DNA of 64,000 nucleotides from Candidatus Zhuqueibacterota bacterium (GCA_034505495.1 JAPDQV010000001.1:145892-209891); one strand, 5' to 3'; numbered from the stretch's first letter, positions 1 to 16,136 are shown. The notes: a model not told the origin generated them from the letters alone. Translations and numbers: made by a program.

Positions 1-2469
1 CAAACGACGTTTGATTTAAACGGTGAGCGTCTCTTGGACGGCCGCGGCAAGTCCTTGCCGCTCAGCGTAATGACTCGAATGAGGTTGGATTTTTGCCATC
101 AAAGGTTGGAGATCGATTCGCTGGCTTTTGCAGTGCAGGATGTTTCATGGTTCAGTCTGTCGATGGTAGTGGACAGTCTGCTCGGCATGCCGACTTTAAC
201 GGGATACCTGCTTCACGGCGCCGTTCCTTTGCAGCAGTTGGTCGACATTGCATCTCTAATTTTCCCAAAGGGCAACATTCCAGACCTCTTTCTTCACAAT
301 CCCAAGGCGGTCGTTGCAATCGACAGCTTGACGTTCAGGGGCAAGTTTGGTGAAGAACAGGCGGCGCTGGACTGGACGGCTTCCTTATCGTTGAAAGATG
401 CCGGAGTGACGGCCGATCGTGGAAATCTTTTCCTCGGAGGCCTGAATCTTACTGCGGTTATGCGGGGTGCCGTGCGAGAACAGACGATTGCGCAGGCTGA
501 TTTGCGGGTTTCTGCCGTCTATGATTCTGCTTCAGTCCGACTTCCGGAGTTGACGCCGCTTTATACAGGACCCTTGACTCTTGCTGCAGCCATGTCTATA
601 GGTCGAGACGGCTTTCCTGCCGACCTCGAGGCAAAGTTGACTGTTCGCAATTTGTTGGGGGCAAACGCAGCGGCATCCCTTCGGTTAAGCACCCCTCAGG
701 AACTGTCTCGCGCACACGGAAATGCGGTTATTCGAGTCGATGGTTTTGATTTGTCGCAACTTACCGGCGCTCAATGGGTTGGAAATGTTTCTGCTGAAGC
801 GGGTGTGGACATTCGCTCTCTTGATTCTTTGCGCTTCGAGGCAAAGGTTACCACGGATACGCTGACAGCCATTCAGGAAGGTCAGCTTTATGTTATGGCG
901 CCGATGACGGTCAAATCGGCTGCGCGCGGCGCCTATCATCTCGATGATAACCGCTTGGAGCTCAGAGCATTAGACTTTTCGCTCGATCCTTTCCTCCGCG
1001 CCGAGCTGCGAGCGGATTTATCACTTCAAGATTCGTCTGCGGTTTTACATCAATTTTCTGTGGCAATGGACCACGCGGCTCTTTTCGAAAAGCTGCCGAA
1101 CGCCCTGAATGAACAAATTCCGGGTGCCGGCCTAAGTGGCCGAACATCGTTTGAGGCAGGCGGCCGATTCAAGTTGTCGCCCGATCTGTTGCCGAAAGAA
1201 TTCGAAGTAAAGGCTGTGCTGCAGTCACGAGCAGATTTATCGCTACCCGCGCAGGGTGTAAAAGTCAAAGACCTTTTTGCCGAAGGCGAGCTCGTTGCGG
1301 ATTCCCGACGCGGAGGATTCATGCAGTTTGCCGTCGCACTGGACACAACGCGCTTCCTATTGCCGAATCCTCTCTCGTTTCGAGACAATCGCCTGCTGAT
1401 TCGGCTGTCGATGCCGAATCTCTCCACGATTAGTCTGGATACCGGATACGTTTCGATTCCCGATTTGCACACCTTGGGCGCCGTCAGCGGCCGTATTGAG
1501 AATTTAACCACGCATCCTTTTCTCTCGCTCAAGGCCTCGCTGCGTCAATCGGCTGAGGACACGTTGATTTTTGCCCCGGAGGTCTTTTTCAAAGGCATTA
1601 ATGAAATCGACCTGAATATTCGTGCAGATTCCAGTCATGCGGTTTTGAATGCATCGGTTCGGACCAAGGATCTCAGCGTCTACATGCCGAACGACATTCG
1701 CATCGATCGTTTGAATGCCGACCTTGCCTTTTTACAGGAATTTGATTTCGTAAATCCATCGCGTTTGGGGAGGTCTCCTGCAGTTGTGCGCACGCCATCG
1801 GACGGACTTGTCGATTACCTTCTCTATCGCAATTATTACCAAAGCTACCCCAATAAAAGCCGCCTCAGCATTAGACGAATTCAGATCGGCTCTTATCAGG
1901 TCGAGAATGTGCTGTCGGATATTTTTCTTGGCAACGGTAGGCTCGAAATCCCCTACTTTGCATTGGATGCCTACGGCGGCAATATTGCCGGTCAATTTTC
2001 GCTTTCCGCCGGAGAGAAGGATCCTTTGGACGCTTCTTACAAATTGACGGCTCATATTTCTTCCATCAATTCGTCGCTGTTGCTGCCGTCTGCCGCTTCC
2101 GAGAAAAGCAATATTACCGCACATGCCGAGTTGCGCGGCCGCGGGTTGGATATTAATAAGGGCATCGATTTGGACGGCTACTTTAATATCTCGGAGATCG
2201 AGTCCAAGGTGGCCGATAATCTTTTGCGTTCTCTGGATCCGGAAGGAAAGGATTCGGGAATCCGCAGTACGCGGTTGCTTATCAACCGCGGATTCAAACC
2301 CAAGCTTTTTCGCTTTGAGATTCGGCATGGGTTCTGTTATCCGGCAGTTTATTTTCAGCAGCCTTGGTATTTTCCGGTTCGTCTGATCGGCGGCGGCATT
2401 GAGCTGAGCCGCATACCGATCGTCACCCTGCTCAAACTCAATCCCAATTTAGCACGGAGTTTCAAATGA
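1..2469 (+). CDS. AsmA-like / YdbH-like large envelope protein (5' end lies upstream of window)
   Basis: Frame is open from nt 1 (no stop before the listed TTG at 34); >811 aa, repetitive beta-rich sequence without recognizable enzyme motifs; stop overlaps start of downstream YnbE/YdbL-like lipoprotein gene (ATGA at 2466-2469), mirroring the E. coli ydbH-ynbE-ydbL gene order. Confidence 0.4.
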   Translation, partial: QTTFDLNGERLLDGRGKSLPLSVMTRMRLDFCHQRLEIDSLAFAVQDVSWFSLSMVVDSLLGMPTLTGYLLHGAVPLQQLVDIASLIFPKGNIPDLFLHNPKAVVAIDSLTFRGKFGEEQAALDWTASLSLKDAGVTADRGNLFLGGLNLTAVMRGAVREQTIAQADLRVSAVYDSASVRLPELTPLYTGPLTLAAAMSIGRDGFPADLEAKLTVRNLLGANAAASLRLSTPQELSRAHGNAVIRVDGFDLSQLTGAQWVGNVSAEAGVDIRSLDSLRFEAKVTTDTLTAIQEGQLYVMAPMTVKSAARGAYHLDDNRLELRALDFSLDPFLRAELRADLSLQDSSAVLHQFSVAMDHAALFEKLPNALNEQIPGAGLSGRTSFEAGGRFKLSPDLLPKEFEVKAVLQSRADLSLPAQGVKVKDLFAEGELVADSRRGGFMQFAVALDTTRFLLPNPLSFRDNRLLIRLSMPNLSTISLDTGYVSIPDLHTLGAVSGRIENLTTHPFLSLKASLRQSAEDTLIFAPEVFFKGINEIDLNIRADSSHAVLNASVRTKDLSVYMPNDIRIDRLNADLAFLQEFDFVNPSRLGRSPAVVRTPSDGLVDYLLYRNYYQSYPNKSRLSIRRIQIGSYQVENVLSDIFLGNGRLEIPYFALDAYGGNIAGQFSLSAGEKDPLDASYKLTAHISSINSSLLLPSAASEKSNITAHAELRGRGLDINKGIDLDGYFNISEIESKVADNLLRSLDPEGKDSGIRSTRLLINRGFKPKLFRFEIRHGFCYPAVYFQQPWYFPVRLIGGGIELSRIPIVTLLKLNPNLARSFK

Positions 2470-3008
2470 CAAGAGCTTTTTGCCTTATCGTTTTGTTTAG
2501 CCTGTGCGCGGCCTGCAGCATCAAAACGCCGGAAATTACGCTCACTGGTGAAAAGACGGCGCTGGAAAATCAGATCATCGGTTCGTTCGAACAGTTGAAC
2601 CAACAGGATTATTTGACGACCTCGGTGCGGACGGCATTATCGGATGAGGCGGTGACCGGCAAAACCGAATCAGTGATCCAGGCTCTGCAGAACCAACAGT
2701 TCATTCAGGACGAAATTGATGAACTCAAACGTGATAAAGTCATCGGTGAAAACAATTCCGGATATCTGGAAATATTGGGGAACGAAAAATATCAAAAAGA
2801 TCCGTTGTATCGGAAACAGGTGGATCGATTGGTGGAAGAGGAAAACAACAATCGACGGATAATTTATCAAAAAGCGGCGATGAGTGCGGAGTGGAGCACC
2901 TCCACGGCTTCCGCATTGGCAAAGCTTCAACAAGAAAAGGCCGCGCCGGGAACCATGATCCAGCTGGAAAGCGGCGAATGGATCGAAAAACCCAGGCCGA
3001 AAAAATGA
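2466..3008 (+). CDS. lipoprotein, YnbE-like N-terminus fused to YdbL-like (DUF1318) domain
   Basis: Lipoprotein signal MTRAFCLIVLFSLCAAC with lipobox; C-terminal region with GYLE-type motif and overall resemblance to small periplasmic YdbL/DUF1318 proteins; translationally coupled to upstream and downstream genes. Confidence 0.45.
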   Translation: MTRAFCLIVLFSLCAACSIKTPEITLTGEKTALENQIIGSFEQLNQQDYLTTSVRTALSDEAVTGKTESVIQALQNQQFIQDEIDELKRDKVIGENNSGYLEILGNEKYQKDPLYRKQVDRLVEEENNNRRIIYQKAAMSAEWSTSTASALAKLQQEKAAPGTMIQLESGEWIEKPRPKK

Positions 3009-6000
3009 TGCAGCGATTTACTGTTATTTTCATTTTTACCTTTTTGCTGTCAGGGGCTGTTTGGTCTGAACAAACAAACGGAGGTGCAAAGGGTCCGGTG
3101 GAAGAGGTCTATCAGGTGACCAGCCATCCGGAAGCCGACTTGGCGCCGCGCGTTTCAACGGACGGGAAATGGCTTGCCTATGTCAATCGGCAGAGCGGCA
3201 ATTACGATATTTATATTAAAAATTTACAGACGGGAAGAAGCCGCCGTCTGACCGATCACGAAGCGGACGACTATCACCCGGTTTGGGATAAAAAAAATCG
3301 TTATCTGATCTTTGTCTCGCAGCGAAGCGACGCCAAAGGCGACCTTTTTCGCCTCAATCTGCGTAATGTACGCGGCGAGTTGATCGCCAAAGGCAAACCG
3401 GAACGGCTGACGACCTATATGGGGTTCGACGGCCTGCCGACCATTTCTGAATATGATGAACACATCGCCTGGGTTTCCGATCGGACAGGCCGACCGGAAA
3501 TCTGGCTGATGACTAAGCGGGGCCAGGCGATTCGTCAATTGACGCACGGCGGAGCAACACATCCGGCCTGGAGTCCCAAACAGTCCTATTTGGCTTTTAC
3601 CAGTTTTCGTCAAGACGGCAGCAACGGCGATATCTGGCTCATCAATCTCTATGCGCCGCGCGAGTGGATCGAGGTGAGGACGCCGCTGGACAGCCTTGAG
3701 CGTCCGATGTGGCCTGTAACACGCGGTGAAGCCGCTGACGGCTTTCCAACTTGGTCCCCTGATGCCAAGACGATTCTTTTTTGCCGAAGTGATCACGACG
3801 ATAACGGCGACGGGCTGATCACTCCCTCTGATCGCTCGGTAATTTGGGCTGTCGACGTTTCGCATCTGCCGCAGGACCATCCTTCTTCCTTGAATCCTTC
3901 TTATCGCCTCTACCGCGAAACGTTCGATGAACGAATCGTTCACCGTGCCTGCCCGATTGTATCGGCTAAATACAATGCCGCGCAGCCTGAATACGGTATG
4001 GACGGCCGCATTTATTTTTCGTCCGAAATCAAAGGCAATTTTGACATCTTTTCACTGCCGGACAGCCTGCTGCATGGTCATCCGCCGTCTATCGATGACA
4101 TGCCTCCGCTGCCTAACGGACTGGCTGCCAAGGATTTGTCGATCTTTATTGATGAGCCGCCGGTGTGGAACGAAAGGCAACGGCGTCAGCTCTATGATCG
4201 AATTTATACCCTGCAAAGGATCATGGACAGTCCTCAGGCCGATGCGGAACAAATTGCCGGTGCTGCCTACGAGATCGCCGTATGTTCGCTGCTGTTGGGA
4301 GATTCGCTGCGCTGCGTGCGTCATCTCGATTTTATTCTCGCCGATTATCCTGCCTCCGAGGCGGCTCCATTTGCCGAGCTTTTGCGGACCAGGGTTTCCG
4401 AGGTACGCAAAGAAAATGAGGCGCAGAAACTGCGACTTTTGGAACAGGAGATCCTTCGCCTTCAGGCCGGCGCTGCACCGAGCCGTCGATTCGCCGCCGA
4501 ATCAGAGCTGCTCCTTGGTGCTCTTTATGAACGACAAGAAAGATTTGAAGATGCAGAAAAGGCTTATCGGCGGGAAACGGAAAAGGCGCAGGCTTTTCCG
4601 GATCTTGTCGGTGAGGCCCTGCTTCGTCTCGGACGTTTGCAAAAAACCGAAGGCAAATACGGTGACGCAATGGCCTCTTTTTTGTCGGCCATGAAAAACG
4701 GCGGCAAACCGGAAAAGCATGCCCAAGCACGCAGTGAACTGCTCGAAATGTTCACCCTCGGTGCTGCCGATGATGCAACGCTGCTCTCGCGCTATAAAAT
4801 GGTGATCCGCCGGTTTTTTGCCCTCGATGTTTTCGTCATTGAGCCGTTTTTGCGAATCGCGGAATTGCATGTGCGAAACGGCAGGCTGCAGGAAGCATTG
4901 GATCTCTATGACTTTCTCCAGGCCCAGTTTGCCGATTTGACCGACGAAGCCTTTGACATTCGCTTAGGACGGGCGCAGGTGCTCTATCGGCTGGGAGATT
5001 TGCAGCAGGCGGCAACCCTCTTGAGCGAAACGGCCGCACTTTATCGCCAAAATCGGCCCAAATTGGCCAAGCAGGCCGAAACGCAATTGACCGATATGCT
5101 CTACCACTCGGCTTTAGACCTGATGACGACTAATCAATACGGTCAAGCGGCCGCAAGGTTGAAAAAGGTGCTGGAAATCGATCCGCATCATTTGCCGGCG
5201 CATCAGAGCTACATCGAATGCGCATTTTTGCTCAATCAAATCGATCAGGTGTTGACGGAATATACTGAAGCCGTCCGGAATCATCCCGAAGATAACATTC
5301 TTCTCTACGCTCAGGGATTGGCTTATTCCTATAAAGGTGCCTCGATCTATCCGAATGGTTGTGAAACTTGGGTGACCAGTGCGGAGGCTTTGGAGCAATC
5401 GAATCAAATTCTCTACAAAGCGCTGGCCTTGGATTACAATCTAATCGATGCCTACCTGCTGTTGAGTTTCAATTCCGAACTATTGGAATCTTTTCAGAAT
5501 CGGCGACAGCGGGAAGCCAAAAGTTTTGCGCAAAAGGCTTTCGGTACAATCACGGCGCCGTTGGTTTGGCTTTATCACACAGTCACCTTTTACGAAGAAA
5601 CTAAACCGCCGAGATATTATGAAAGTGCCATTCAGGAGCTCACCCAGGCGATGGCGCTCAACGACGAAGAGCTCTATCCACGGCGCGAGGCGCTTCTGGC
5701 GCTCAATATGGCCAACAATTATTACAGCCTGGGCGAATTCGGGTTCCGCAAGGCTTATGAGTACTATCACACTTTTTTAAAGTATGACTCGACTTTTGCC
5801 GGTATGCCGCACGAGGCGTTAATCAAAGAACGGATGGGGCACTGTGCCATCTTTGTCAACGATCAGCTGCGGGGACCCAACTACCTCAAGCGGGCTATCG
5901 AGTTGTATGGTAAATTGAACAATCAGGAACGTCTTCTGCTTAATCTCAAACGGCTCGCTTTGCTCTATGAGGTCGGGGAAAATCATAGCGAGGCCTTACG

Positions 6001-9000
6001 GTATTATTCAGCAGCCGCGGAGATGGAAGAACGGCTCGGGCGCTATGACGGTCTGTTGCGCAGCCGGCGCAGCGCCGCTTTGCATTACTATGCTTTGGGA
6101 CGATATGAGGAAGCGGTTAGGTCTGCTGAGGAGGCTTTGAGCATGCTCGAAAGCGGCCAGGTCCCGCGAAAAAAGAGTAAACCCATTTATCTTCAAATCG
6201 GATTGCTCGATCTTTACGCCCCCATTCCTTTCGATCTCCGCAAGGTCGGTGCCAAATCGACCATCGATATTTCGACTGAAGAAGAGGAAGCTTTTCTCTA
6301 TACGATTCTTGCTAAAGTTTTTATCGAAAATAAAGATTTCGATCGCGCCATCGAATTCTATCAGAAAAAGTTCGACCTTTATGAGCGGCGCCACGATTAC
6401 GACGCCCAGGCTGTTTTTCAAAACAACATGGGCTATCTCTATTTTCTCAAGGGTGATTATGACAACGCCTGGCGCATGTTCACCAATTCTTATTGGTGGT
6501 GCGTGCGCACCAAATACGTTTATGGCCAGCTGCTGAATTTGGAAAATGCAGCGCAAGTGGTCCTTACGATCGCAAATGAAGAAGATCCGAAACGAAAAGT
6601 TAATTTTGCCAAATATCATCGCTGGATAATCGGCAAGCTGACCGATCTTTTACGAGTCACCCGAGGCGATGAGGCCTTTTATTCGGCGATTCATGCCCGT
6701 TATCGTCTCCTTCTAGCGGATTTACTGATTGTTCCCTATGCCGAATTGCCGAAGAATCTGGAGGCGCGATGGTCGTTTCTTGAAGCGGTCGGCAATGCCG
6801 AAAAGCATCTGATGGAAGCGGAGCGGCTCAGCCGACAGTATCGTCTGCCGCGTGAAGAGTGCGCGGCGCTTTATCGACGGGCAGAGTTGCGGCTCCAAAC
6901 CGGCGACTCGACGGCGGTTTCTTTGTATCTTAGAGCCAAAGAGACGGCGGAGCAGCATCAACTGCGCGATCTTTTGCGACAAATCTATACGGCGCTCGGC
7001 AGTGAAAGCATGAGATTATCTGAAAGAACAGATAACTCTTTGGCGGATGCATCCTTTTATTTGCAGGAGGCCGTGCGATTGACCGAACGGGAGGCTCCTT
7101 CGAACCTGCTTTTATCGGCTGTGCAGGTGCGGCGTCTCATCGAAGCGCCTTATCGCCGTCTCATTCAGCTGCAGGCGGAACGCGGCGATGCGGAGAATGC
7201 GCTGCTGACGGCGGAAAGGATGCGCAGCCAAGTTTTTCGGCAATTGATGCGACGAGACCGTCCGAGTCTCGGGGGAGAAACGGAGCAACGACTTTTTCAT
7301 AGAGCGGACTCTTTGGCCGAGGAGCTGCGCCGTCAAACTGAGCAGGCGAATCGAACTCGTACGAACGACGCAGTCTTGGCTGAAGAGATCGAAAGGTTGC
7401 AGCGTGAATACGAGGCGGCCTTGACTGTCGTTAGGCGCAAAGCGCCGCAGCTTGAGCCGTTTTTACGGCCGGTCAACATTTCGTTGGCTGAACTGCAAAG
7501 CAGACTTGAGCCCAAAGAAGGGCTGCTTACAATTCTTTATCTGCAGGATCAGCTGCTGTTTGGTTGGATAACACGCCGAAACATCGAATTGTACCGACCG
7601 AATTTAGCTGCTTCAAACTTTCGAAAACTTTTGGTTCGTTTACGGGATGGTTTCGAAGCCGATTCGTTGGACGCGGCCGCGGCGGACAGCATTAAAACGG
7701 CCTTTTCCATTTTACCCCTTCAAGGGATCAAACGTTTATACATTCTTCCTGAGCACAAGGATCTGCCTTTTCCTTGGAGTGCATTGTTTCATCTTGTCGA
7801 TTTTCCAACTGTTGCAGGGGTTATTTCTGATTTATCGGCCTTTTTCCCGCCTGGAAAAACAGATCGCTTACCCTCGTTAACGATCTTGAGTTCCGATTCT
7901 CTGCTGCTGCAGGCTCTGCAGAAGCGGGACAGCCTCGTCGTCTCGCCGCTGCCGTCCAAGGCGTCTGACCGCATTGACGCAGCGGTGGTACATTTGCGCG
8001 GAAACAGCCTCGCTCAACCGGTCTTTCCGACCAACAGCACGTTTTCCGCAGCTTGGGCGGGGAAGTGGTCGCCGCTCGATTTACTGCGTGGAAAAGCTTC
8101 TTTAACCCTGCTCTGCTTGGATATTGATAAGGGAGAGTGGACGGCTGAAGCGCTGAGTGCTTGGGAGCGAGCGGCTTATTTCAATGGAACCCGCCGGCTT
8201 TTTGTCTCCTTATGGCCGACAGCCGACAGCAGTCGAACCTTTCTGCAAAGCTGTTTTCGTTATTTGCAAAACAACTTGCCCTCAGCGGCTTTGGACACAA
8301 CCCAGGAGCAAATGGTCGAAAAAGGTGTTCCGTTGCGTTTTTGGGCGGGATTTCAAATCTACGGCGTCGAATCAGGTTCGACTGCAGAAGCGCCGATGAG
8401 CAGCGATGCAGATGAGTGGGTTGCGCGGGGTGATGAGGCGCGGCGGGCACGAAACTGGCGGCATGCTGTGGAATGCTACCTCGAAGCTTTAGAGAGAACG
8501 CAAGCAGAGCGGGAAAAGAATGAGTCGATAGCCGAAAGACTCTTGGCAAGCGCCTTGAGCGGCGGTCTGTGGACCGAGGCGGTTGATGTTGTGCGCCGTC
8601 GAGCATCTTATTACTCCCAAAAGAACTTGCGCCGTGAACAGGCGGCAATGCAGAGGCTTATGGCGGTCGTTTATCATCAGCAGGGGGCGACGGCCGGCGA
8701 GGCGCAGGCGTTAGCCGAATATAGACGGCTTTGCCGCACTTTTTCCATTCCTTACGACGATGCGACGGCTTTTTTCGAAACGGCTCAGCTTTACGCAGAC
8801 AACGGCGACTATGAGCAGGCCGCGCTTCTTTCCATTAAAGCGGCCGAACGGTACGGCAAACTAAACCGCACGCGAAATCAGATTGAAAGCTTACTGAGGG
8901 CCGCAGAATATTTATTCGAAGAGACAGGTTATGTCGATTTGGCGATCGATTTGGCGGAATCGGCTGAACAGCTGAGTAAAAATAACCAGCAAATGGATTT

Positions 9001-11167
9001 GCAGGCAAGGGCTTTGACTTTTTTAGGGCGCTGCCGCTTTGGAGTTGACGCAAATAAAGCACGACAATCCTTGCAATCGGCTTTAAAGCTTGCTGAGAAA
9101 GGGGGATTCAAGCGCCTTGCGGCGGAAATTCGCTTGTCGATGGCGGAGCTGCATCTCAGGACCTTCGAACCCATGGCTGCCGAGCGATTTCTTGTCCAAA
9201 TCGAGGTCGCCGAGCTGGATCCGGCTCTCAAAATAGCGCACCATCTGCTTATTGCACGACAAGCGAGAGCGGTAGGCGATACTGCGAAAGCTGCAGCTCT
9301 TTTGCGCAAAGCTTTTCTCGAGGCGGAATGGTCGGATGATGCGGATTTGGAACAACGGGTAGGCGAAGCTGTTGCCGTTCATGCCGCGTTATCCGGCAAA
9401 GCGGCTAAGGCGGCAGAAGAGATGAAACGATCCGTTCGCCTTGAAAGCCGCCCCTTCAACCGTTCGGCAATACGCCGACGTACAGCCTTGGCTTTATTCT
9501 TATATCTGGCAGGAAAAACCGAAGAGGCGAAGAGCGAGGCTAAAGAAAATATCGGTGCTTGCGATCGTCCCTATTTATATGATTTTCGCTCTGCCAATAA
9601 CTGGCTGCTGAGCTGTCTCGAAGAGGATGCGGCGCTTTCCAGGCAATTTGCAGAAGCAGCGGCATCTGCAGCGCAACGCATCGGTCGCTCGGATCTCCTC
9701 TTTCGCGCCTATTATCGCTTGGCACAACTAGCGGAAGAAGATGATAGGGCTCATTTCTATTTAGTCGCAGCCGACTCGGCGCTCAGCCTTGCCCCGCCGC
9801 AAAGCGAGTACGACGATTATTTCCTAGGGCTGCTGCCGCTGGAGCGACGGTTTTATCAAACCGCGGTCAAACTATGTGTGCGCAGCAATCGGTTGCACGA
9901 TGCGCTTGTTTTCGCTGATCAGCACCGAAATATCGATTTTATTCACGCCGCAAGGCTGCGGCTTTTTTCCTTCAAGGCTGACGACCGGCAGCAGGCCGAG
10001 CACTATTTCCGGATCAAAGAGCGATTATCAAGACTCTACTCAAGCGCAATGTTTCAATGCGACCCGCGTTCCATCTTTGCCGCAAAAGATTCCCTAATCG
10101 TGAAACGGCAAATCTCTGCCCTGCAGGACTCTCTGAGGTCGCTTAAAGAAACCTGCCGTTTTCAAGATCCTCAATTGGGTCCGCTGCTTTTCGGGTTGAG
10201 CGGCTGCCGTGAGGCAAGCCCGCTCGCCGATGGTCGGCTGCTGATCTCGCTTTACCATGATGATGAAACCCTCTACATTTGGCGGCGCCGCGAGGATCGC
10301 CTCGACGTAGACCTGCAGCCCTATGACGCGGTGCAGACAAAGAATGTCCTAAAAACGCTGCAGCAACTAGACCTCAACGCCGATGCCGGAGATTTTACCC
10401 GTCTTCTTTATGCAACGGTGTTCGAACCTTGGCAGCAGGACGTCGAACAAGCGCGCAGAATCGTTATCGTTCCCTATTCCCAATGGCACTATGTGCCGTG
10501 GGCTATGTTGAATGACAAGAGCGGTACCTTCCTCGGCCTCGAGAAACCAATTTCACTCGCGGCATGGTCGTTCGAAGCGGAAAAAAAGGAATCCTTAACA
10601 GCTGCCTGGAATTCAAAACGGCTTATTCTGGTTGGAAAACCACCCTCGTCGCAACAAGATCCCTTTTATAAGCCCCTTGCCCGAGCCTTGGAACGGTATG
10701 CTGAAGAGTCAATTGTGCTTTTGCCGGATCGACTCCAGACCGCTTCACTTGGCGGATCGGTACTTGTTGCTGAGAGTTTGGATGAGAATTCACAGGAAGC
10801 CTGGCTTTATCAGCCGGAAAGCGAGTCAGGTTATCGCAATATGGCCTGGCCGGATTGGATGCAGCAGAGCGAACCGCCCTATGCCGTCGTTTTTTTGCGG
10901 ACCCGTAATTCGGAGCCGCAAGAAGGCACCGAAACGGCCGTTGCAGGCGCTGTCGCTTCATATCTCGGCTCCGCGCTGCTTCTGCCCTTGCCGTTAAACG
11001 CCGATGCGTTTGCTGCCGCCATTTTGGTCAAGCGTTACGTAAAGATGCTCAGCGAAGGACTTTCCCCTTCGGAAGCCCTCAATTCGGCACAACGAGCCGT
11101 TTACGACCGGCTTGATCGTCGTCCGAAAGCTTGGGGCTGTTTTGTTCTCTATGATGTTGGTCGATAA
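3005..11167 (+). CDS. giant (about 2720 aa) secreted PD40 beta-propeller / TPR / CHAT-domain protein with two CHAT (caspase-like) domains
   Basis: In-frame ATG at 3005 overlapping upstream stop (TGA 3006-3008); signal peptide MMQRFTVIFIFTFLLSGAVWS; N-terminal TolB-like PD40 repeats (YHPVWDKKNRYLIFVS, THPAWSPKQSYLAFTS, DGFPTWSPDAKTILF); long TPR-rich middle; CHAT signatures (see domain features). Confidence 0.8.
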   Translation: MMQRFTVIFIFTFLLSGAVWSEQTNGGAKGPVEEVYQVTSHPEADLAPRVSTDGKWLAYVNRQSGNYDIYIKNLQTGRSRRLTDHEADDYHPVWDKKNRYLIFVSQRSDAKGDLFRLNLRNVRGELIAKGKPERLTTYMGFDGLPTISEYDEHIAWVSDRTGRPEIWLMTKRGQAIRQLTHGGATHPAWSPKQSYLAFTSFRQDGSNGDIWLINLYAPREWIEVRTPLDSLERPMWPVTRGEAADGFPTWSPDAKTILFCRSDHDDNGDGLITPSDRSVIWAVDVSHLPQDHPSSLNPSYRLYRETFDERIVHRACPIVSAKYNAAQPEYGMDGRIYFSSEIKGNFDIFSLPDSLLHGHPPSIDDMPPLPNGLAAKDLSIFIDEPPVWNERQRRQLYDRIYTLQRIMDSPQADAEQIAGAAYEIAVCSLLLGDSLRCVRHLDFILADYPASEAAPFAELLRTRVSEVRKENEAQKLRLLEQEILRLQAGAAPSRRFAAESELLLGALYERQERFEDAEKAYRRETEKAQAFPDLVGEALLRLGRLQKTEGKYGDAMASFLSAMKNGGKPEKHAQARSELLEMFTLGAADDATLLSRYKMVIRRFFALDVFVIEPFLRIAELHVRNGRLQEALDLYDFLQAQFADLTDEAFDIRLGRAQVLYRLGDLQQAATLLSETAALYRQNRPKLAKQAETQLTDMLYHSALDLMTTNQYGQAAARLKKVLEIDPHHLPAHQSYIECAFLLNQIDQVLTEYTEAVRNHPEDNILLYAQGLAYSYKGASIYPNGCETWVTSAEALEQSNQILYKALALDYNLIDAYLLLSFNSELLESFQNRRQREAKSFAQKAFGTITAPLVWLYHTVTFYEETKPPRYYESAIQELTQAMALNDEELYPRREALLALNMANNYYSLGEFGFRKAYEYYHTFLKYDSTFAGMPHEALIKERMGHCAIFVNDQLRGPNYLKRAIELYGKLNNQERLLLNLKRLALLYEVGENHSEALRYYSAAAEMEERLGRYDGLLRSRRSAALHYYALGRYEEAVRSAEEALSMLESGQVPRKKSKPIYLQIGLLDLYAPIPFDLRKVGAKSTIDISTEEEEAFLYTILAKVFIENKDFDRAIEFYQKKFDLYERRHDYDAQAVFQNNMGYLYFLKGDYDNAWRMFTNSYWWCVRTKYVYGQLLNLENAAQVVLTIANEEDPKRKVNFAKYHRWIIGKLTDLLRVTRGDEAFYSAIHARYRLLLADLLIVPYAELPKNLEARWSFLEAVGNAEKHLMEAERLSRQYRLPREECAALYRRAELRLQTGDSTAVSLYLRAKETAEQHQLRDLLRQIYTALGSESMRLSERTDNSLADASFYLQEAVRLTEREAPSNLLLSAVQVRRLIEAPYRRLIQLQAERGDAENALLTAERMRSQVFRQLMRRDRPSLGGETEQRLFHRADSLAEELRRQTEQANRTRTNDAVLAEEIERLQREYEAALTVVRRKAPQLEPFLRPVNISLAELQSRLEPKEGLLTILYLQDQLLFGWITRRNIELYRPNLAASNFRKLLVRLRDGFEADSLDAAAADSIKTAFSILPLQGIKRLYILPEHKDLPFPWSALFHLVDFPTVAGVISDLSAFFPPGKTDRLPSLTILSSDSLLLQALQKRDSLVVSPLPSKASDRIDAAVVHLRGNSLAQPVFPTNSTFSAAWAGKWSPLDLLRGKASLTLLCLDIDKGEWTAEALSAWERAAYFNGTRRLFVSLWPTADSSRTFLQSCFRYLQNNLPSAALDTTQEQMVEKGVPLRFWAGFQIYGVESGSTAEAPMSSDADEWVARGDEARRARNWRHAVECYLEALERTQAEREKNESIAERLLASALSGGLWTEAVDVVRRRASYYSQKNLRREQAAMQRLMAVVYHQQGATAGEAQALAEYRRLCRTFSIPYDDATAFFETAQLYADNGDYEQAALLSIKAAERYGKLNRTRNQIESLLRAAEYLFEETGYVDLAIDLAESAEQLSKNNQQMDLQARALTFLGRCRFGVDANKARQSLQSALKLAEKGGFKRLAAEIRLSMAELHLRTFEPMAAERFLVQIEVAELDPALKIAHHLLIARQARAVGDTAKAAALLRKAFLEAEWSDDADLEQRVGEAVAVHAALSGKAAKAAEEMKRSVRLESRPFNRSAIRRRTALALFLYLAGKTEEAKSEAKENIGACDRPYLYDFRSANNWLLSCLEEDAALSRQFAEAAASAAQRIGRSDLLFRAYYRLAQLAEEDDRAHFYLVAADSALSLAPPQSEYDDYFLGLLPLERRFYQTAVKLCVRSNRLHDALVFADQHRNIDFIHAARLRLFSFKADDRQQAEHYFRIKERLSRLYSSAMFQCDPRSIFAAKDSLIVKRQISALQDSLRSLKETCRFQDPQLGPLLFGLSGCREASPLADGRLLISLYHDDETLYIWRRREDRLDVDLQPYDAVQTKNVLKTLQQLDLNADAGDFTRLLYATVFEPWQQDVEQARRIVIVPYSQWHYVPWAMLNDKSGTFLGLEKPISLAAWSFEAEKKESLTAAWNSKRLILVGKPPSSQQDPFYKPLARALERYAEESIVLLPDRLQTASLGGSVLVAESLDENSQEAWLYQPESESGYRNMAWPDWMQQSEPPYAVVFLRTRNSEPQEGTETAVAGAVASYLGSALLLPLPLNADAFAAAILVKRYVKMLSEGLSPSEALNSAQRAVYDRLDRRPKAWGCFVLYDVGR
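3110..3850 (+). other. PD40/TolB-like beta-propeller repeat region of giant protein
   Basis: Three or more repeats of the W-S-P-D/hydrophobic PD40 pattern separated by about 45 aa, immediately after signal peptide. Confidence 0.6.
7700..8370 (+). other. CHAT domain 1 (apparently catalytically intact caspase-like protease domain)
   Basis: LYILPEHKDLPFPWSALF (substrate-groove motif), AAVVHLRGNS (catalytic His), LTLLCLDIDKGEW (catalytic Cys), C-terminal RRLFVSLWPTAD...RFWAGFQIYGV matching CHAT consensus ...slW.v.D....WA.F.l.G. Confidence 0.65.
10450..11164 (+). other. CHAT domain 2 (degenerate, His and Cys positions substituted)
   Basis: RIVIVPYSQWHYVPWAML ... AWGCFVLYDVGR matches CHAT N- and C-terminal motifs, but the His position reads VLVAESLD and the Cys position reads AVVFLRTRNSEP (no Cys). 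Confidence 0.5.
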
Positions 11168-11193: not shown

Positions 11194-12930
11194 GTGAAAC
11201 CGAGAGTTATTGGCCTGCTTTTGCTGTTTTTCCGACTTGCGGAGGCCCAAACGCCGCTGCTTCAGATAACCTTTCCGGCTCAAAACGATACGGTAAACGG
11301 TAACCGAGTTCGAATTTCCGGATTTACCGAAAGCGGAGCCGTTGTTTCGATCAATGGCAAAAAAGTACCGTTAACACCTCAGGCTTCTTTTGTTGCCCGC
11401 GTTGATTTGTCTGAAGGATTGAACACAATTCTCGTCGAAGCACAAAAAAACGGAGCCGTATCCGTTCAGAACCTGTCGGTTTATCGTCCGCCGTCGACCA
11501 AGTCCCTGCCTGAAAAGCCCACGGCGATCGACTTGGACGGGTGTGCGCCGCGCCGCGATGTTTGGCTAAGCGTCGGTGATTATCTCGATGTTCAGCTTAA
11601 AGGCAGCCCTAACGGTGTTGCCGCCTTTTCGATCGACCGCTATCTCAAGCACCTGCCGATGGTAGAAATCGATACCGCTTTGACTGACGGAATTTTCGGC
11701 ATATATCGCGGAGCAATCCGTATTAGTTCCGATCTCCCTATTGATAAACCGCTGGCCATCGAGGGCGAGCTGCTGGGAGCCGACGGGCGCAAAAAAAAGC
11801 TGGTGATCGGACGCTTGTTCGTGCTTTCGCCGCATGTGCCGCTGATCGGCCGGACCAAGCAAACGGTGACTGTTCACAGCGCTGCGGAGGGGTATGTTCC
11901 TTGGTTGCGTCTTCCGGCCGGAATCGATTTGCACATCGTCGGCAAGCGGAATAACCGCTATCAAGTTCGTTTTTCAGCAACGAAGCAAGGTTATATCGAA
12001 GAGGATGGAATCGAGTTGTTGCCGGCGGGTACGCCCCTGCCGTCTTTAGCTGTCGGCGCTCCAAACTTGGTTCAGGATAAAAATTGGATCCGGCTGATTT
12101 ATCCGGCCGACCGGCTGCCGGCCTTTTGGATCGATCAAGATCCTGTCCTTAATCGTCTCGACTTGTATCTCTTCGGAGCTCGGCAGGCTTCGCACTGGGT
12201 GACGTTTCCCAACGGAGAAAGCGACCTTGCTGCGCTGGTCTTTGGACAGGAAGACAATGCATTTCGAACTACGGTCGTTTTGCGGACCAAAAGGGTATGG
12301 GGATATAAAGCAGAGTATCGCGACGGCGCCGTCGTTTTTTCCATACGCAGGCCGCCGGTAATCAATTCGCAGAATCCGCTGCAGGGGTTGGTGATCGCCG
12401 TCGACGCCGGACACGGCGGTCAGGATCGAGGCGCCGTGAGCCCCCTCGGCAGATTGGAAAAAGAGATCAACCTTATGTGGGCCGAAAGCCTTGCCGCCAA
12501 ACTGAGGAGCAACGGCGCAACCGTGGTCATGACGCGACGGGAAGACATCGAGGTCTCTTTGGCAGAACGCATACGTCTGGCCGAGGAAGCCGAGGCTCAT
12601 ATCTTTCTTTCCCTGCACAACAACAGCGTGCCGGCGACCGGCAATCCGGCTGCCGAGGGCACGAGCGTTTATTTCACCACGCCGCAAAGTCGTGACCTGG
12701 CCTGGGCTCTTTATCCTTACCTGGTCAAACTGGGTCTGGCGCCCTTTGGCCGCGTCTATAATGCCTACTATGTAACGCAATCAACGGCGTTTTTGAGTGT
12801 GCTCATCGAAGGAGGATTTCTCAGTAACCCAAAAGAGGAACTCAAGCTGGCGGATCCTGTTTTTATCGACAGGTTATCGCAGGCAATTTGTGAGGGATTA
12901 GCGGATTTTTTGTCGACTGGAGAAAAATGA
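11194..12930 (+). CDS. N-acetylmuramoyl-L-alanine amidase (Amidase_3, AmiC-like) with N-terminal Ig-like/unknown domains
   Basis: GTG start; signal peptide; C-terminal Amidase_3 motifs VIAVDAGHGGQDRGA ... SLHNNS ... EGGFLSN; 26 nt downstream of giant CHAT gene. Confidence 0.85.
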   Translation: MKPRVIGLLLLFFRLAEAQTPLLQITFPAQNDTVNGNRVRISGFTESGAVVSINGKKVPLTPQASFVARVDLSEGLNTILVEAQKNGAVSVQNLSVYRPPSTKSLPEKPTAIDLDGCAPRRDVWLSVGDYLDVQLKGSPNGVAAFSIDRYLKHLPMVEIDTALTDGIFGIYRGAIRISSDLPIDKPLAIEGELLGADGRKKKLVIGRLFVLSPHVPLIGRTKQTVTVHSAAEGYVPWLRLPAGIDLHIVGKRNNRYQVRFSATKQGYIEEDGIELLPAGTPLPSLAVGAPNLVQDKNWIRLIYPADRLPAFWIDQDPVLNRLDLYLFGARQASHWVTFPNGESDLAALVFGQEDNAFRTTVVLRTKRVWGYKAEYRDGAVVFSIRRPPVINSQNPLQGLVIAVDAGHGGQDRGAVSPLGRLEKEINLMWAESLAAKLRSNGATVVMTRREDIEVSLAERIRLAEEAEAHIFLSLHNNSVPATGNPAAEGTSVYFTTPQSRDLAWALYPYLVKLGLAPFGRVYNAYYVTQSTAFLSVLIEGGFLSNPKEELKLADPVFIDRLSQAICEGLADFLSTGEK

Positions 12931-13677: not shown

Positions 13678-14115
13678 TCAACCTTTGAAAATCGTAATTC
13701 TGACACGCGAAGAGCCCGGTAAAAGAATGGGAATGTTGACACCCGATTGCACTTTGAAGGGATTGGGAAACGGTTCGAGAAGTTCGGGATATTGCCAAAA
13801 ACCGGGCTCAAAGTGCGACTGATTGTTTTCTCCCGGGCTTCCGCCCTTAATGGCTGTTATGATTTCCTGTTGCTGCCAGTCTTTGATTTCCAACACGACT
13901 ACATAATCGCCGGGTTCAACGTACTGTTTGTCCTCATTTTTCCCGTCCCAATAAAATACATATTTTCCGCCGTCAATTAAATAATCATCGATCAATAGAA
14001 TTACTTTTTGCGCCGATACCGGATTTTTGCACGACACCAAAAGGCAAAAAACCGGCCAGATCAGAACGCGTAAGAGTGTTCGGGACGGCTTTATTCCGAT
14101 GTCTTTGCGAGCCAT
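13678..14115 (-). CDS. lipoprotein with FlgD Ig-like / T9SS-like C-terminal domain
   Basis: Lipoprotein signal ...VFCLLVSC; YVFYWDGKNEDKQYVEPGDYVVVLEI followed by PFPNPFK...RVRITIF; start overlaps 3' end of S9 peptidase gene. Confidence 0.45.
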   Translation of the reverse strand: MARKDIGIKPSRTLLRVLIWPVFCLLVSCKNPVSAQKVILLIDDYLIDGGKYVFYWDGKNEDKQYVEPGDYVVVLEIKDWQQQEIITAIKGGSPGENNQSHFEPGFWQYPELLEPFPNPFKVQSGVNIPILLPGSSRVRITIFKG

Positions 14116-16136
14116 TTTTCCAACCAGGCAAATACTTCGTTCCACCACAACCGGGCGTTTTGCGGTTTGGTCACAAAATGCGTCTCATCAGGAAAACAAA
14201 TCAGTTTGGACGGCACGCCGTACCTCTGCAGGGCGGTGAACATTTGCAGGCCCTGCGTCACCGGAACACGAAAGTCGAGTTCTCCATGGATGACCAGCGT
14301 CGGCGTTCGAAACTTGTTCAGGTTCGCCGCATAGGTAGAAGGCGACCAGCGCCGGTAAAGATCGGGATTTTCGTATGGGATACCGCCGAACTCCCATTCC
14401 GGAAACCACAGCTCATCGGTGGCGCCGTATTTGCTGACGAGATCAAAAACACCCGCATGGCTGACCAAAGCTTTGAAGCGGTCGGTCTGTGTAGCGATCC
14501 AATTAATCATGTAGCCGCCGTAGCTTGCTCCCGCCGCGGCAATGCGCTCCTTATCGATAAAGCTGTAACGCTCGACCACATAATCGATGCCCGCCAGAAT
14601 ATCTTGATAAGGCCCGCCGCCCCAATCGCGACTGACGGCGTCGCACCACTCCTGACCGTAGCCTTTGGAACCGCGTATGTTCAAAGCAACCACGACAAAG
14701 CCGCGCGATGCAAATAGTGACGTGTTCCAGCGATAGTGAAAATCATCGCCCCACATTCCCTGCGGCCCCCCGTGGATGAGGCAAAGCAGCGGATATTTTC
14801 GGGAAGTATCGAAAGCCGGCGGCTTTAGTAGGAAGCCGTGAACCGTCTTGCCGTCAAAAGAAGGATAACTCAGATCTTCCAATGGGGTTAAATCCAATTG
14901 ATCGAGCAAAGGCTGATTGGTAAAAGTGAGTTGTGTCGGCGATTTGTTGCGCAGATCATAGCCGAAAATTTCCTCCGGCATAACGGCGGATTGGCGTTTG
15001 AAGAAGAGGCGGCGACCGTTCGGGCTAATTGTTAAATGACGATTGACGTGATCGCCGATGATTTTCGTGATGCGCCCGGATTTCAATTCCAGGCGATAAA
15101 TAGATTCGCGGCCGAAATCCTCGGCGGTAAAAAAGAGGGCCGAGTTATCGGGAGACCAAATCACCTGGCCGACCGAGCGATCGAAAGAATCCGTCAGCGA
15201 TACGCTGCTTCCGGTTCGACGATCATAAAGCATCAGCTCGTACTCGTCGGCTTCGAAGCCTGGGCGCCGCATGGCGCGGTAGGCAAGATAGCGACCGTCG
15301 GGAGAAAAGACCGGCTGATTATCGACCGCTGCGTTGGCGGCCGTCAGATTTTGTTGGATGCCGCTTTCCAAATCGAGTAGAAAGACGTCATTGTTGGTGT
15401 TGACGGCCGGCTCCGCCGTTGCATTGCCGACAAAGGCGATCGTTTTTCCGTCAGGTGAGAAACAAAAGTCGGGATCACCGCCCAAATCAAGCGGCGGCAC
15501 GTCCCAATCGCCCGGCGTGAGATCGCGGAGGTTGGCGCCGTCGGCATTGCAGAGGAACAGATGCGATCGTCTGCCGTCGCGCCAATGATTCCAAGGTCGA
15601 AACAAGAGGCGGTCGGCAATGTGCGCCTTAACAAGCGATTCCTCTCTCACGCGCTCCATTGCCGCGCTTTCTTCTATATTTGCGGCTTTTGGAAAAATTG
15701 AAAGGATCAGCGCCAGATGTTTGCCGTCAGGAGACCAGGCAAAATCCTCAATATCCAAAGGCAGGCGGGTCAACTGCACTGCTTCGCCGCCGGAAAGGGG
15801 CAAAAGGAAGATCTGCCGCGAGCAGTTGCGGGAAGAGAGAAAGGCTACCGCGCTGCCGTCCGGTTTCCAATGCGGCGTACTGCTGCCCGCAGCATGAGTG
15901 GTAAGCTGACGCGTCTCGCCGGTTGCCGTGTCGAGGAGCCAAAGGTCGGTACGGCCGCTGTTTTTTTCCATGTCGTAAGCGGTCATTTCGTAGACCATTC
16001 GGCTGCCGTCCGGGGAAAGTTCGATTCGGCCGATGCGCTTCATTGCCCAAAGGTCTTCAACGGTCATCGGGCGTTTGGCCGGCAGCGAAGCAGCCGAAAG
16101 GCTCACGAGCAGGAAAAAAGATATCAGCATGCGCAT
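14091..16136 (-). CDS. S9 family serine peptidase (prolyl oligopeptidase/acylaminoacyl-peptidase type) with N-terminal PD40 propeller
   Basis: Signal peptide; PD40 repeats; catalytic GASYGGYM (GxSxG) and alpha/beta hydrolase C-terminus. Confidence 0.85.
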   Translation of the reverse strand: MRMLISFFLLVSLSAASLPAKRPMTVEDLWAMKRIGRIELSPDGSRMVYEMTAYDMEKNSGRTDLWLLDTATGETRQLTTHAAGSSTPHWKPDGSAVAFLSSRNCSRQIFLLPLSGGEAVQLTRLPLDIEDFAWSPDGKHLALILSIFPKAANIEESAAMERVREESLVKAHIADRLLFRPWNHWRDGRRSHLFLCNADGANLRDLTPGDWDVPPLDLGGDPDFCFSPDGKTIAFVGNATAEPAVNTNNDVFLLDLESGIQQNLTAANAAVDNQPVFSPDGRYLAYRAMRRPGFEADEYELMLYDRRTGSSVSLTDSFDRSVGQVIWSPDNSALFFTAEDFGRESIYRLELKSGRITKIIGDHVNRHLTISPNGRRLFFKRQSAVMPEEIFGYDLRNKSPTQLTFTNQPLLDQLDLTPLEDLSYPSFDGKTVHGFLLKPPAFDTSRKYPLLCLIHGGPQGMWGDDFHYRWNTSLFASRGFVVVALNIRGSKGYGQEWCDAVSRDWGGGPYQDILAGIDYVVERYSFIDKERIAAAGASYGGYMINWIATQTDRFKALVSHAGVFDLVSKYGATDELWFPEWEFGGIPYENPDLYRRWSPSTYAANLNKFRTPTLVIHGELDFRVPVTQGLQMFTALQRYGVPSKLICFPDETHFVTKPQNARLWWNEVFAWLEKWLAKTSE

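Follow-up and report, generated by a model that had tools for sequence, protein, structure and literature searches.

A giant TPR protein of a Candidatus Zhuqueibacterota bacterium most likely carries two catalytically dead CHAT domains

A 64,000-nucleotide stretch of the genome of a Candidatus Zhuqueibacterota bacterium (GCA_034505495.1 JAPDQV010000001.1:145892-209891) contains a giant gene whose product of about 2,700 amino acids has two CHAT domains, here called CHAT-1 and CHAT-2, each preceded by a solenoid of tetratricopeptide repeats (TPR). We refer to the whole stretch as the window; all positions are counted from its first letter, and features lie on the plus strand (+) unless stated otherwise. 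The part under study, 10450-11164, corresponds to residues 2521-2758 and forms the 3' end of an open reading frame of 2758 codons (2891..11167). An earlier note on this DNA had read CHAT-2 as a catalytically dead pseudo-protease, paired with an active CHAT-1 and serving it in an allosteric or substrate-docking role, as in separase. The locus therefore raises the question of whether either domain can still cut, and of why a dead domain is kept. The comparative analysis described here leads to the answer that both CHAT domains of the window protein, a giant and predicted exported TPR protein, are most likely dead.

The assignment of CHAT-2 to the CHAT family, on which the earlier reading depended, is upheld. 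The domain comprises residues 2445-2758 (10223..11164), including an N-terminal beta-hairpin sub-domain. A Pfam scan of the giant protein found five N-terminal PD40 repeats, many TPRs, and the CHAT family (PF12770) in three stretches, the latter scoring 60.5 bits over the whole protein against a gathering cut-off of 24. For CHAT-2 the score is 48.9 bits; residues 2503-2632 match profile positions 4-132 and residues 2708-2754 match positions 237-287, while the intervening positions 133-236, which bear the His and Cys motifs, are unmatched. Active relatives score 221 and 199 bits and are matched end to end, versus 56 bits for the closest orthologue (P0002; such handles denote individual members of the protein family). 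Profile-profile alignment by hhalign of the dyad-less against the dyad-bearing CHAT-2 clade gives a probability of 100% (E 2e-64, 318 columns). An AlphaFold 2 (AF2) model of residues 2434-2758 has a predicted local distance difference test score (pLDDT) of 81.9 and a predicted template modelling score (pTM) of 0.85, and internally it drops under pLDDT 50 in one stretch only, directly behind the former His site. In a Foldseek search of the PDB this model matches Csx29/TPR-CHAT best (E 1e-11, TMq 0.67), followed by separase, SAVED-CHAT and DdvA. The predicted structure thus shows CHAT-2 as a bona fide CHAT fold of the caspase-hemoglobinase type.

The catalytic columns of CHAT-2 were defined by aligning the C-terminal 330-340 residues of 60 full-length relatives, 45 of which carry the canonical xHG...SAC(E/Q)TG. 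The window protein, P0002-P0015 and P0060 lack the dyad in this alignment. The window protein has S2629 (10775-10777) in the His column, within the motif remnant VLVAESLD (10760..10783), and T2671 (10901-10903) in the Cys column, within the remnant AVVFLRTRNSEP (10883..10918); both remnants are the motifs named in the earlier note. The flanking hallmarks that the note quoted are retained, so that all four motifs are found where they had been placed: the N-terminal IVIVPYSQWHYVPWAML (10460..10510), for which the family consensus is hlvIVPhg.LHYLPFA.L, and the C-terminal AWGCFVLYDVGR (11129..11164), which closes a retained region of C-terminal helices and a strand (11012..11164, LVKRY...AL.SAQ..V...P.AWGCFVLY). 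When a CHAT-2 profile is compared with PDB sequences, both catalytic columns align with the motifs CHGEAN and GACETDL of the Scalindua TPR-CHAT protein, that is, with H585 and C627 by our own count across the numbering offsets of the two chains. These residues are reported to be catalytic, and cleavage is abolished by C627A and C627S (PMC9729208).

An active cysteine peptidase of clan CD would have its catalytic His (xHG) where the His strand ends and its catalytic Cys (SAC.TG) some 42-45 residues downstream; these places are taken by S2629 and T2671 in CHAT-2, and by N1705 and D1746 in CHAT-1. Within residues 2481-2758 the only His is H2533, part of the N-terminal LHYLPF-type motif, and the only Cys is C2750, which is not conserved and lies in the C-terminal region. 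Since both are single and far from the active site, no alternative dyad is possible in CHAT-2. A frameshift or assembly artefact hiding the motifs was also considered and rejected, because a hidden Markov model (HMM) of active CHAT-2 run against the six frames of the window matches in the main frame only, and the loss is common to 14 diverged orthologues. Conservation of the substitutions among these orthologues is a different matter: the absence of the dyad is shared by all 14, but the replacing residues themselves vary. As a separate observation, P0002 retains a Cys in the Cys column of CHAT-2 and has no His.

The presence of hydroxyl residues in both catalytic columns could suggest that CHAT-2 is still a hydrolase with non-canonical residues, for example with Ser2629 or Thr2671 as the nucleophile. 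This is highly improbable given the variation among the closest orthologues (E/R/N/D/P/T/G in the His column and G/A/L/T/C in the Cys column), the lack of any His near enough to act as a base (the sole one being H2533), and the loss of all oxyanion and loop motifs (HG, SAC.TG.G, GDE..GL.R) around the site; moreover, Csx29 with the substitution C627S is inactive (PMC9729208). Both residues were rejected as alternative nucleophiles on the grounds that they are not conserved and have no base. From these comparisons we infer that CHAT-2 of the window protein is catalytically dead.

To place this loss in the history of the family, relatives were collected in two ways. The full-length protein as a query yielded 76 relatives, about 60 of them full-length at 2.6-2.9 thousand amino acids, from KSB1, Calditrichota, Zixibacteria, Nitrospirales and Geomonas. 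An exhaustive phmmer search of 1.84 billion representatives with CHAT-2 of the window protein yielded 69 relatives, which appear to be mostly members or fragments of the same giant-protein family; 59 were new to the analysis, comprising 50 with both His and Cys, 8 without both, and one that was too short. A neighbour-joining tree built from 1,369 N-terminal columns, and hence independent of CHAT-2, groups the window protein with P0002-P0015 in a monophyletic clade nested among dyad-bearing lineages. With a wider taxon set, P0043 also falls within this clade, which we call the dead clade, P0060 and P0070 form separate deep dyad-less branches, and P0048/P0049 form another. Altogether, a dyad-less CHAT-2 was noted outside the clade in P0060, P0070, P0048/P0049, P0077, P0084, P0098, P0105, P0109 and P0119-P0121. 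Two other relatives, P0052 and P0053, have weak Peptidase_C50 matches.

Because most relatives keep the canonical dyad in the same domain, these comparisons show an ancestral CHAT-2 that would have been active, i.e. that had the canonical dyad. They also show a dyad loss placed once at the base of the window protein's clade, with several apparently independent losses elsewhere. The dead P0002 and the active P0030, P0055 and P0064 occupy the same syntenic slot, which identifies the dead proteins as positional orthologues of the active ones rather than spare paralogues.

The remaining part of the question concerns CHAT-1 (residues 1530-1830, 7478..8380), which was delimited by a Pfam fragment, profile alignment, AF2 and Foldseek. 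PF12770 matches it at profile positions 207-288 only (residues 1751-1825, 28.2 bits), leaving the His- and Cys-bearing middle unmatched. A CHAT-1 family profile found no match among PDB sequences even at E 10, and its CHAT homology is therefore shown by hhalign and by fold instead. The hhalign comparisons of CHAT-1 with CHAT-2 give probabilities of 99.6-99.9% (E 1e-23 to 2e-35), as expected for homologous duplicates, and the AF2 model of CHAT-1 (pLDDT 89, pTM 0.89) matches Csx29 (E 8e-11), DdvA and separase. The motif regions of the window protein read AAVVHLRGNS and LTLLCLDID. In the alignment to active CHAT-2 (99.9%, E 2e-35, 288 columns), N1705 (8003-8005) stands in the His column and D1746 (8126-8128) in the Cys column; the alignment to dead CHAT-2 agrees, pairing N1705 with S2629 and D1746 with T2671. 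Across the aligned CHAT-1 segments of 44 family members these columns hold Q/E/T/R/... and D/T/E/N/L/S/..., and none of the sequences has a Cys there. By this alignment CHAT-1 is a predicted pseudo-CHAT across the whole family, with no conserved dyad in the 44 members compared.

These data bear directly on the proposal of an active CHAT-1 protease assisted by the dead CHAT-2, a pseudo-protease that would act allosterically or in substrate docking. Such an arrangement has a precedent in the pseudo-plus-active pair of separase, the two domains are homologous, and H1701 (7991-7993) and C1742 (8114-8116) of CHAT-1 are 41 residues apart, near the spacing of 42-45 in real dyads. However, H1701 lies four residues before the His column and corresponds to the first, non-catalytic His of the HxxxHG motif, which is kept in 34 of the 44 CHAT-1 sequences, and C1742 lies in a strand, four residues short of the Cys column, at a position that has Cys in only 2 of the 44. 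The family's catalytic columns hold Q/E/T/R and D/T/E/N, and the Pfam match is limited to the end of the profile described above. The pair H1701/C1742 was consequently rejected as a cryptic dyad, its alignment register being off and its conservation lacking, and we give an active CHAT-1 in the window protein almost no credence. With no dyad in CHAT-1 family-wide and none in CHAT-2 of the window protein, both CHAT domains of this protein are predicted to be dead.

The comparison with separase nevertheless holds in part. Separase has one inactive and one active caspase-like domain. The ancestral state of the present family, a pseudo CHAT-1 followed by an active CHAT-2, resembles this pairing, and a catalytically competent partner is still indicated for 45 of the 60 relatives, where it is CHAT-2; the polarity is thus the reverse of that proposed in the earlier note, and the window protein itself combines two dead domains. 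Separase (PDB 5fc3, 5u1t, 7nj1) also shares the order of helical repeats followed by a caspase-like domain and gives significant structural matches. In contrast, its two domains stand back to back, whereas about 600 residues of TPR separate those of the window protein, which moreover is predicted to be exported rather than nuclear or cytoplasmic and has no securin-like partner.

Other known systems offer similarly partial parallels. Dead caspase-family pseudoenzymes such as cFLIP have lost the catalytic Cys and His yet are retained, and heterodimerise with an active paralogue. Unlike this type, the window protein has no active CHAT partner encoded within itself or in the 64-kb window, where a six-frame HMM search found no second, active CHAT gene. 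To our knowledge, DdvA is the only characterised extracytoplasmic TPR-CHAT protein. This transmembrane anti-sigma factor from Myxococcus xanthus has its TPR-CHAT part in the periplasm (PDB 8rot/8rw5) and keeps H862/C907 (PMC11506125). DdvA is matched by both CHAT models and by the sequence profile, and provides a precedent for a periplasmic CHAT; its canonical dyad, single CHAT, membrane anchor, cytoplasmic anti-sigma domain and defence-island regulation are not found in the window protein. The best structural match of both CHAT domains is Csx29/TPR-CHAT of the type III-E CRISPR Craspase (PDB 7zoq, 8d9f/g, 7y9x, 8eey; E 1e-11 to 1e-9, TMq 0.6-0.7), in which a TPR solenoid is likewise N-terminal to CHAT, and the catalytic motifs of which align with those of the family's active CHAT-2. 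Unlike Csx29, the window protein has no dyad in either CHAT, starts with a putative signal peptide, combines a PD40 propeller with two CHAT domains, and is about four times larger. The association with Cas7-11/gRAMP and Csx30/31 that characterises Craspase is also absent, with no cas genes nearby.

What happened to CHAT-2 after the loss was assessed by comparing identities for pairs of sequences matched on their rest-of-protein identity (30-40%). In active lineages CHAT-2 is the best-conserved region, at an identity of 0.47 versus 0.33 for the rest, whereas in the dead clade it falls behind the rest (0.24 versus 0.36). The catalytic core (residues 2611-2700) falls from 64% identity among active members to 18.5% among dead ones, and the TPR-B solenoid N-terminal to CHAT-2 (8438..10150, delimited by Pfam) is relaxed along with it, from 47% to 26%. 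The other regions are unchanged: PD40 has 53% identity in active versus 60% in dead members, TPR-A 46% versus 44%, and CHAT-1 34% versus 30%. About 74 columns are at least 85% conserved in active CHAT-2, and most of them are lost in the dead clade, including HG, D, P..S..L, DGRL..E.F, SAC.TG.G, GDE..GL.R.F..AG and SLW.V.D. Just 6 columns show conservation confined to the dead clade, and a new active site is thus not indicated. A canonical substrate-docking role for CHAT-2 is unlikely as well, for the loops of the substrate groove are its least conserved part (18.5%) and have the lowest model confidence.

The domain has not, on the other hand, simply eroded. At least 14 diverged orthologues have retained the whole length of CHAT-2. 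The nearest non-identical relative of the window protein is only 46% identical, and synonymous sites are saturated. Retained features include W2464, L2506, P2528, L2540, K2714, L2730, A2733, P2745 and W2748 as well as overall length; five of these residues (W2464, K2714, L2730, A2733 and W2748) do not vary within the dead clade, where the C-terminal helices, at 45% identity, are the best-conserved part of CHAT-2. The domain thus has the properties of a pseudoenzyme, namely homology to an enzyme, loss of the catalytic residues, and a fold and length kept across diverged orthologues.

These observations also help to weigh the view that TPR-B and CHAT-2 are a functionless remnant drifting neutrally towards deletion. 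The sharp drop in constraint on TPR-B and the CHAT-2 core, the very few new clade-specific conserved residues and the recurrence of dyad loss (P0060, P0070, P0048/49 and 8 of the 59 further representatives) would all fit such drift, as would P0043, a member of the dead clade that matches the active CHAT-2 HMM only to position 251 and is without the C-terminal hallmark. Neutral sequence, however, would lose both frame and similarity at such depth, whereas about 900 codons can be aligned over their full extent, with the frame intact, in no fewer than 14 orthologues that are 36-45% identical over the rest of the sequence. The five invariant residues, the 45% identity of the C-terminal part, the hhalign match to active domains at E 2e-64 and the confident AF2 fold of CHAT-2 point in the same direction. 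With retained positions and length speaking against neutral decay, we regard this view as improbable.

We instead consider it quite likely that CHAT-2 derives from a periplasmic TPR-CHAT protease module that was active in the ancestor, and that it survives as a relic without catalytic activity. In the ancestor, TPR-B and CHAT-2 would have formed one protease unit, as in Csx29, DdvA and separase, the activity of which became dispensable. The dyad loss, which maps to a single branch, was followed by loss of nearly all conserved residues associated with the active site and by relaxed constraint on TPR-B; conservation persists in the N-terminal hallmark, the core of the beta-sheet and the helices at the C-terminus. 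The giant protein as a whole would no longer cut; most likely it is a scaffold without cutting activity that evolved from a protease. CHAT-2 would persist at most as a structural end-cap or a partner-binding surface for the TPR-B solenoid, rather than assist an active domain allosterically. Whatever function is retained would reside in the PD40/TPR-A half and CHAT-1, in the periplasm, together with AsmA-like and DUF1318 proteins.

Several points weigh against this reading. The inactivity is deduced from sequence, and the case for a non-catalytic role of CHAT-2 consists of its retention and the conservation of its fold. With a catalytic core at 18.5% identity, near-neutral evolution is possible for part of CHAT-2. 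The phylogeny comes from plain neighbour joining and has no support values, and the periplasmic location follows from inspection of the N-termini by eye.

The giant gene itself is represented in the database by a 100% identical protein of 2729 amino acids (P0001), labelled 'MAG: tetratricopeptide repeat protein [candidate division KSB1 bacterium]', which starts at M30 (nucleotide 2978), so that the gene occupies 2978..11167 and encodes, in order, a putative signal peptide, the PD40 beta-propeller, TPR-A, CHAT-1, TPR-B and CHAT-2. The start is ambiguous: GTG 2891 opens the reading frame, ATG 2978 is used in the database copy, and M39 (ATG 3005) is an alternative. The last overlaps the stop of the upstream gene for a DUF1318 protein (ATGA), stands directly 5' of the signal-peptide-like segment MMQRFTVIFIFTFLLSGAVWSEQ (3005..3070, judged by inspection), and may be the true start. 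This segment is followed by a PD40/TolB-like beta-propeller region (3068..4090; PF07676 at 1e-28, with TolB models scoring under their cut-offs) and by the TPR-A solenoid (4178..7390), both of which are at least as well conserved in the dead clade as in the active one. All family members inspected by eye have a signal-peptide-like N-terminus leading directly into the PD40 propeller. In TPR-B, a sub-threshold match to HEPN_AbiV/AbiV_defense (about 8753..8899, residues 1955-2003; 21 bits versus a cut-off of 27.1) was rejected as probable helical-repeat noise.

The neighbours of the giant gene encode AsmA-like, DUF1318, Amidase_3, cytidylate-kinase-like and Peptidase_S9 proteins. Upstream, an AsmA-like (YdbH-like) gene cut by the window edge (34..2469, C-terminal 811 amino acids) aligns at 49% identity with residues 278-1089 of the 1089-residue AsmA-like protein encoded next to P0002. 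It is followed by the gene of a DUF1318 (YdbL-like) protein of 180 amino acids (2466..3008), which lies directly upstream of the giant gene in every locus examined. The Pfam match of the latter covers residues 81-175 only, with no Pfam match in its 80-residue N-terminal extension. Its N-terminus, MTRAFCLIVLFSLCAAC/SIKTPEITL, has a lipoprotein-like signal with a lipobox-like Cys, and the extension might be a YnbE-like lipoprotein segment, by analogy with YnbE of E. coli, fused to YdbL. The order AsmA-like gene (about 1,100-1,200 amino acids), DUF1318 gene, giant gene was found in all five loci examined, those of the window, P0002, P0030, P0055 and P0064, which comprise four KSB1 or unassigned metagenome loci and Geomonas oryzisoli (CP076723). 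Downstream, a gene for an N-acetylmuramoyl-L-alanine amidase of 578 amino acids (11194..12930; Amidase_3 at 1e-38, with an N-terminal Glucodextran_B-like domain) is found directly next to the giant gene also in P0002, the closest orthologue, though not in more distant relatives. A gene combining a PD40 beta-propeller with a prolyl-oligopeptidase-type Peptidase_S9 domain (14091..16136, minus strand) has the same position in the P0002 locus.

Membership in a defence system was considered and rejected, as no cas or CBASS genes were found among the neighbours and PADLOC returned a generic TPR model only. The conserved AsmA-like/DUF1318 cluster and the putative signal peptide point to a role in the envelope, and the function of the giant protein would accordingly concern the cell envelope, in the periplasm. 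According to two published accounts (PMC11126948, PMC13464000), YdbH (AsmA-like), YnbE and YdbL of E. coli form or modulate an intermembrane lipid bridge. Our literature search found no description of a link between AsmA-like, DUF1318 and giant genes, or of a giant PD40-TPR-CHAT family. Tentatively, and with considerable doubt, we suggest that the protein of about 2,700 amino acids could be an undescribed periplasmic partner of an AsmA-like (YdbH-type)/YdbL-type lipid-bridge system. In most lineages the TPR-CHAT part at its C-terminus would work as a regulated periplasmic protease on a component of this envelope machine; in the clade of the window protein this protease would have been switched off permanently, with the PD40/TPR-A/CHAT-1 scaffold remaining under selection. 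If so, the core job of the protein would be non-proteolytic, and the dead CHAT-2 would be kept only as a structural cap.

The finding has consequences for annotation, evolution and biology of the family. The public label names only a TPR protein, and the reading as an active domain plus a pseudo-protease would wrongly predict protease activity; the protein would be better treated as a doubly dead CHAT pseudoenzyme. Dead caspase-like domains are unsurprising in themselves, and what deserves attention is the reversed polarity, the recurrent loss accompanied by co-relaxation of the TPRs, and the link to AsmA-like and YdbL-like proteins. The family appears to have held an ancient pseudo-CHAT beside an active CHAT in one polypeptide, of which the active one was lost repeatedly, with weaker constraint after each loss on CHAT-2 and its TPR sensor arm but not on the rest of the protein. 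Such losses would make it possible to tell apart what a TPR-CHAT module contributes by catalysis and what it contributes otherwise, and can be viewed as a natural experiment. Finally, the adjacency to AsmA-like and DUF1318/YdbL genes in five loci, one of them in the cultured Geomonas, suggests an uncharacterised function of this family in the cell envelope.

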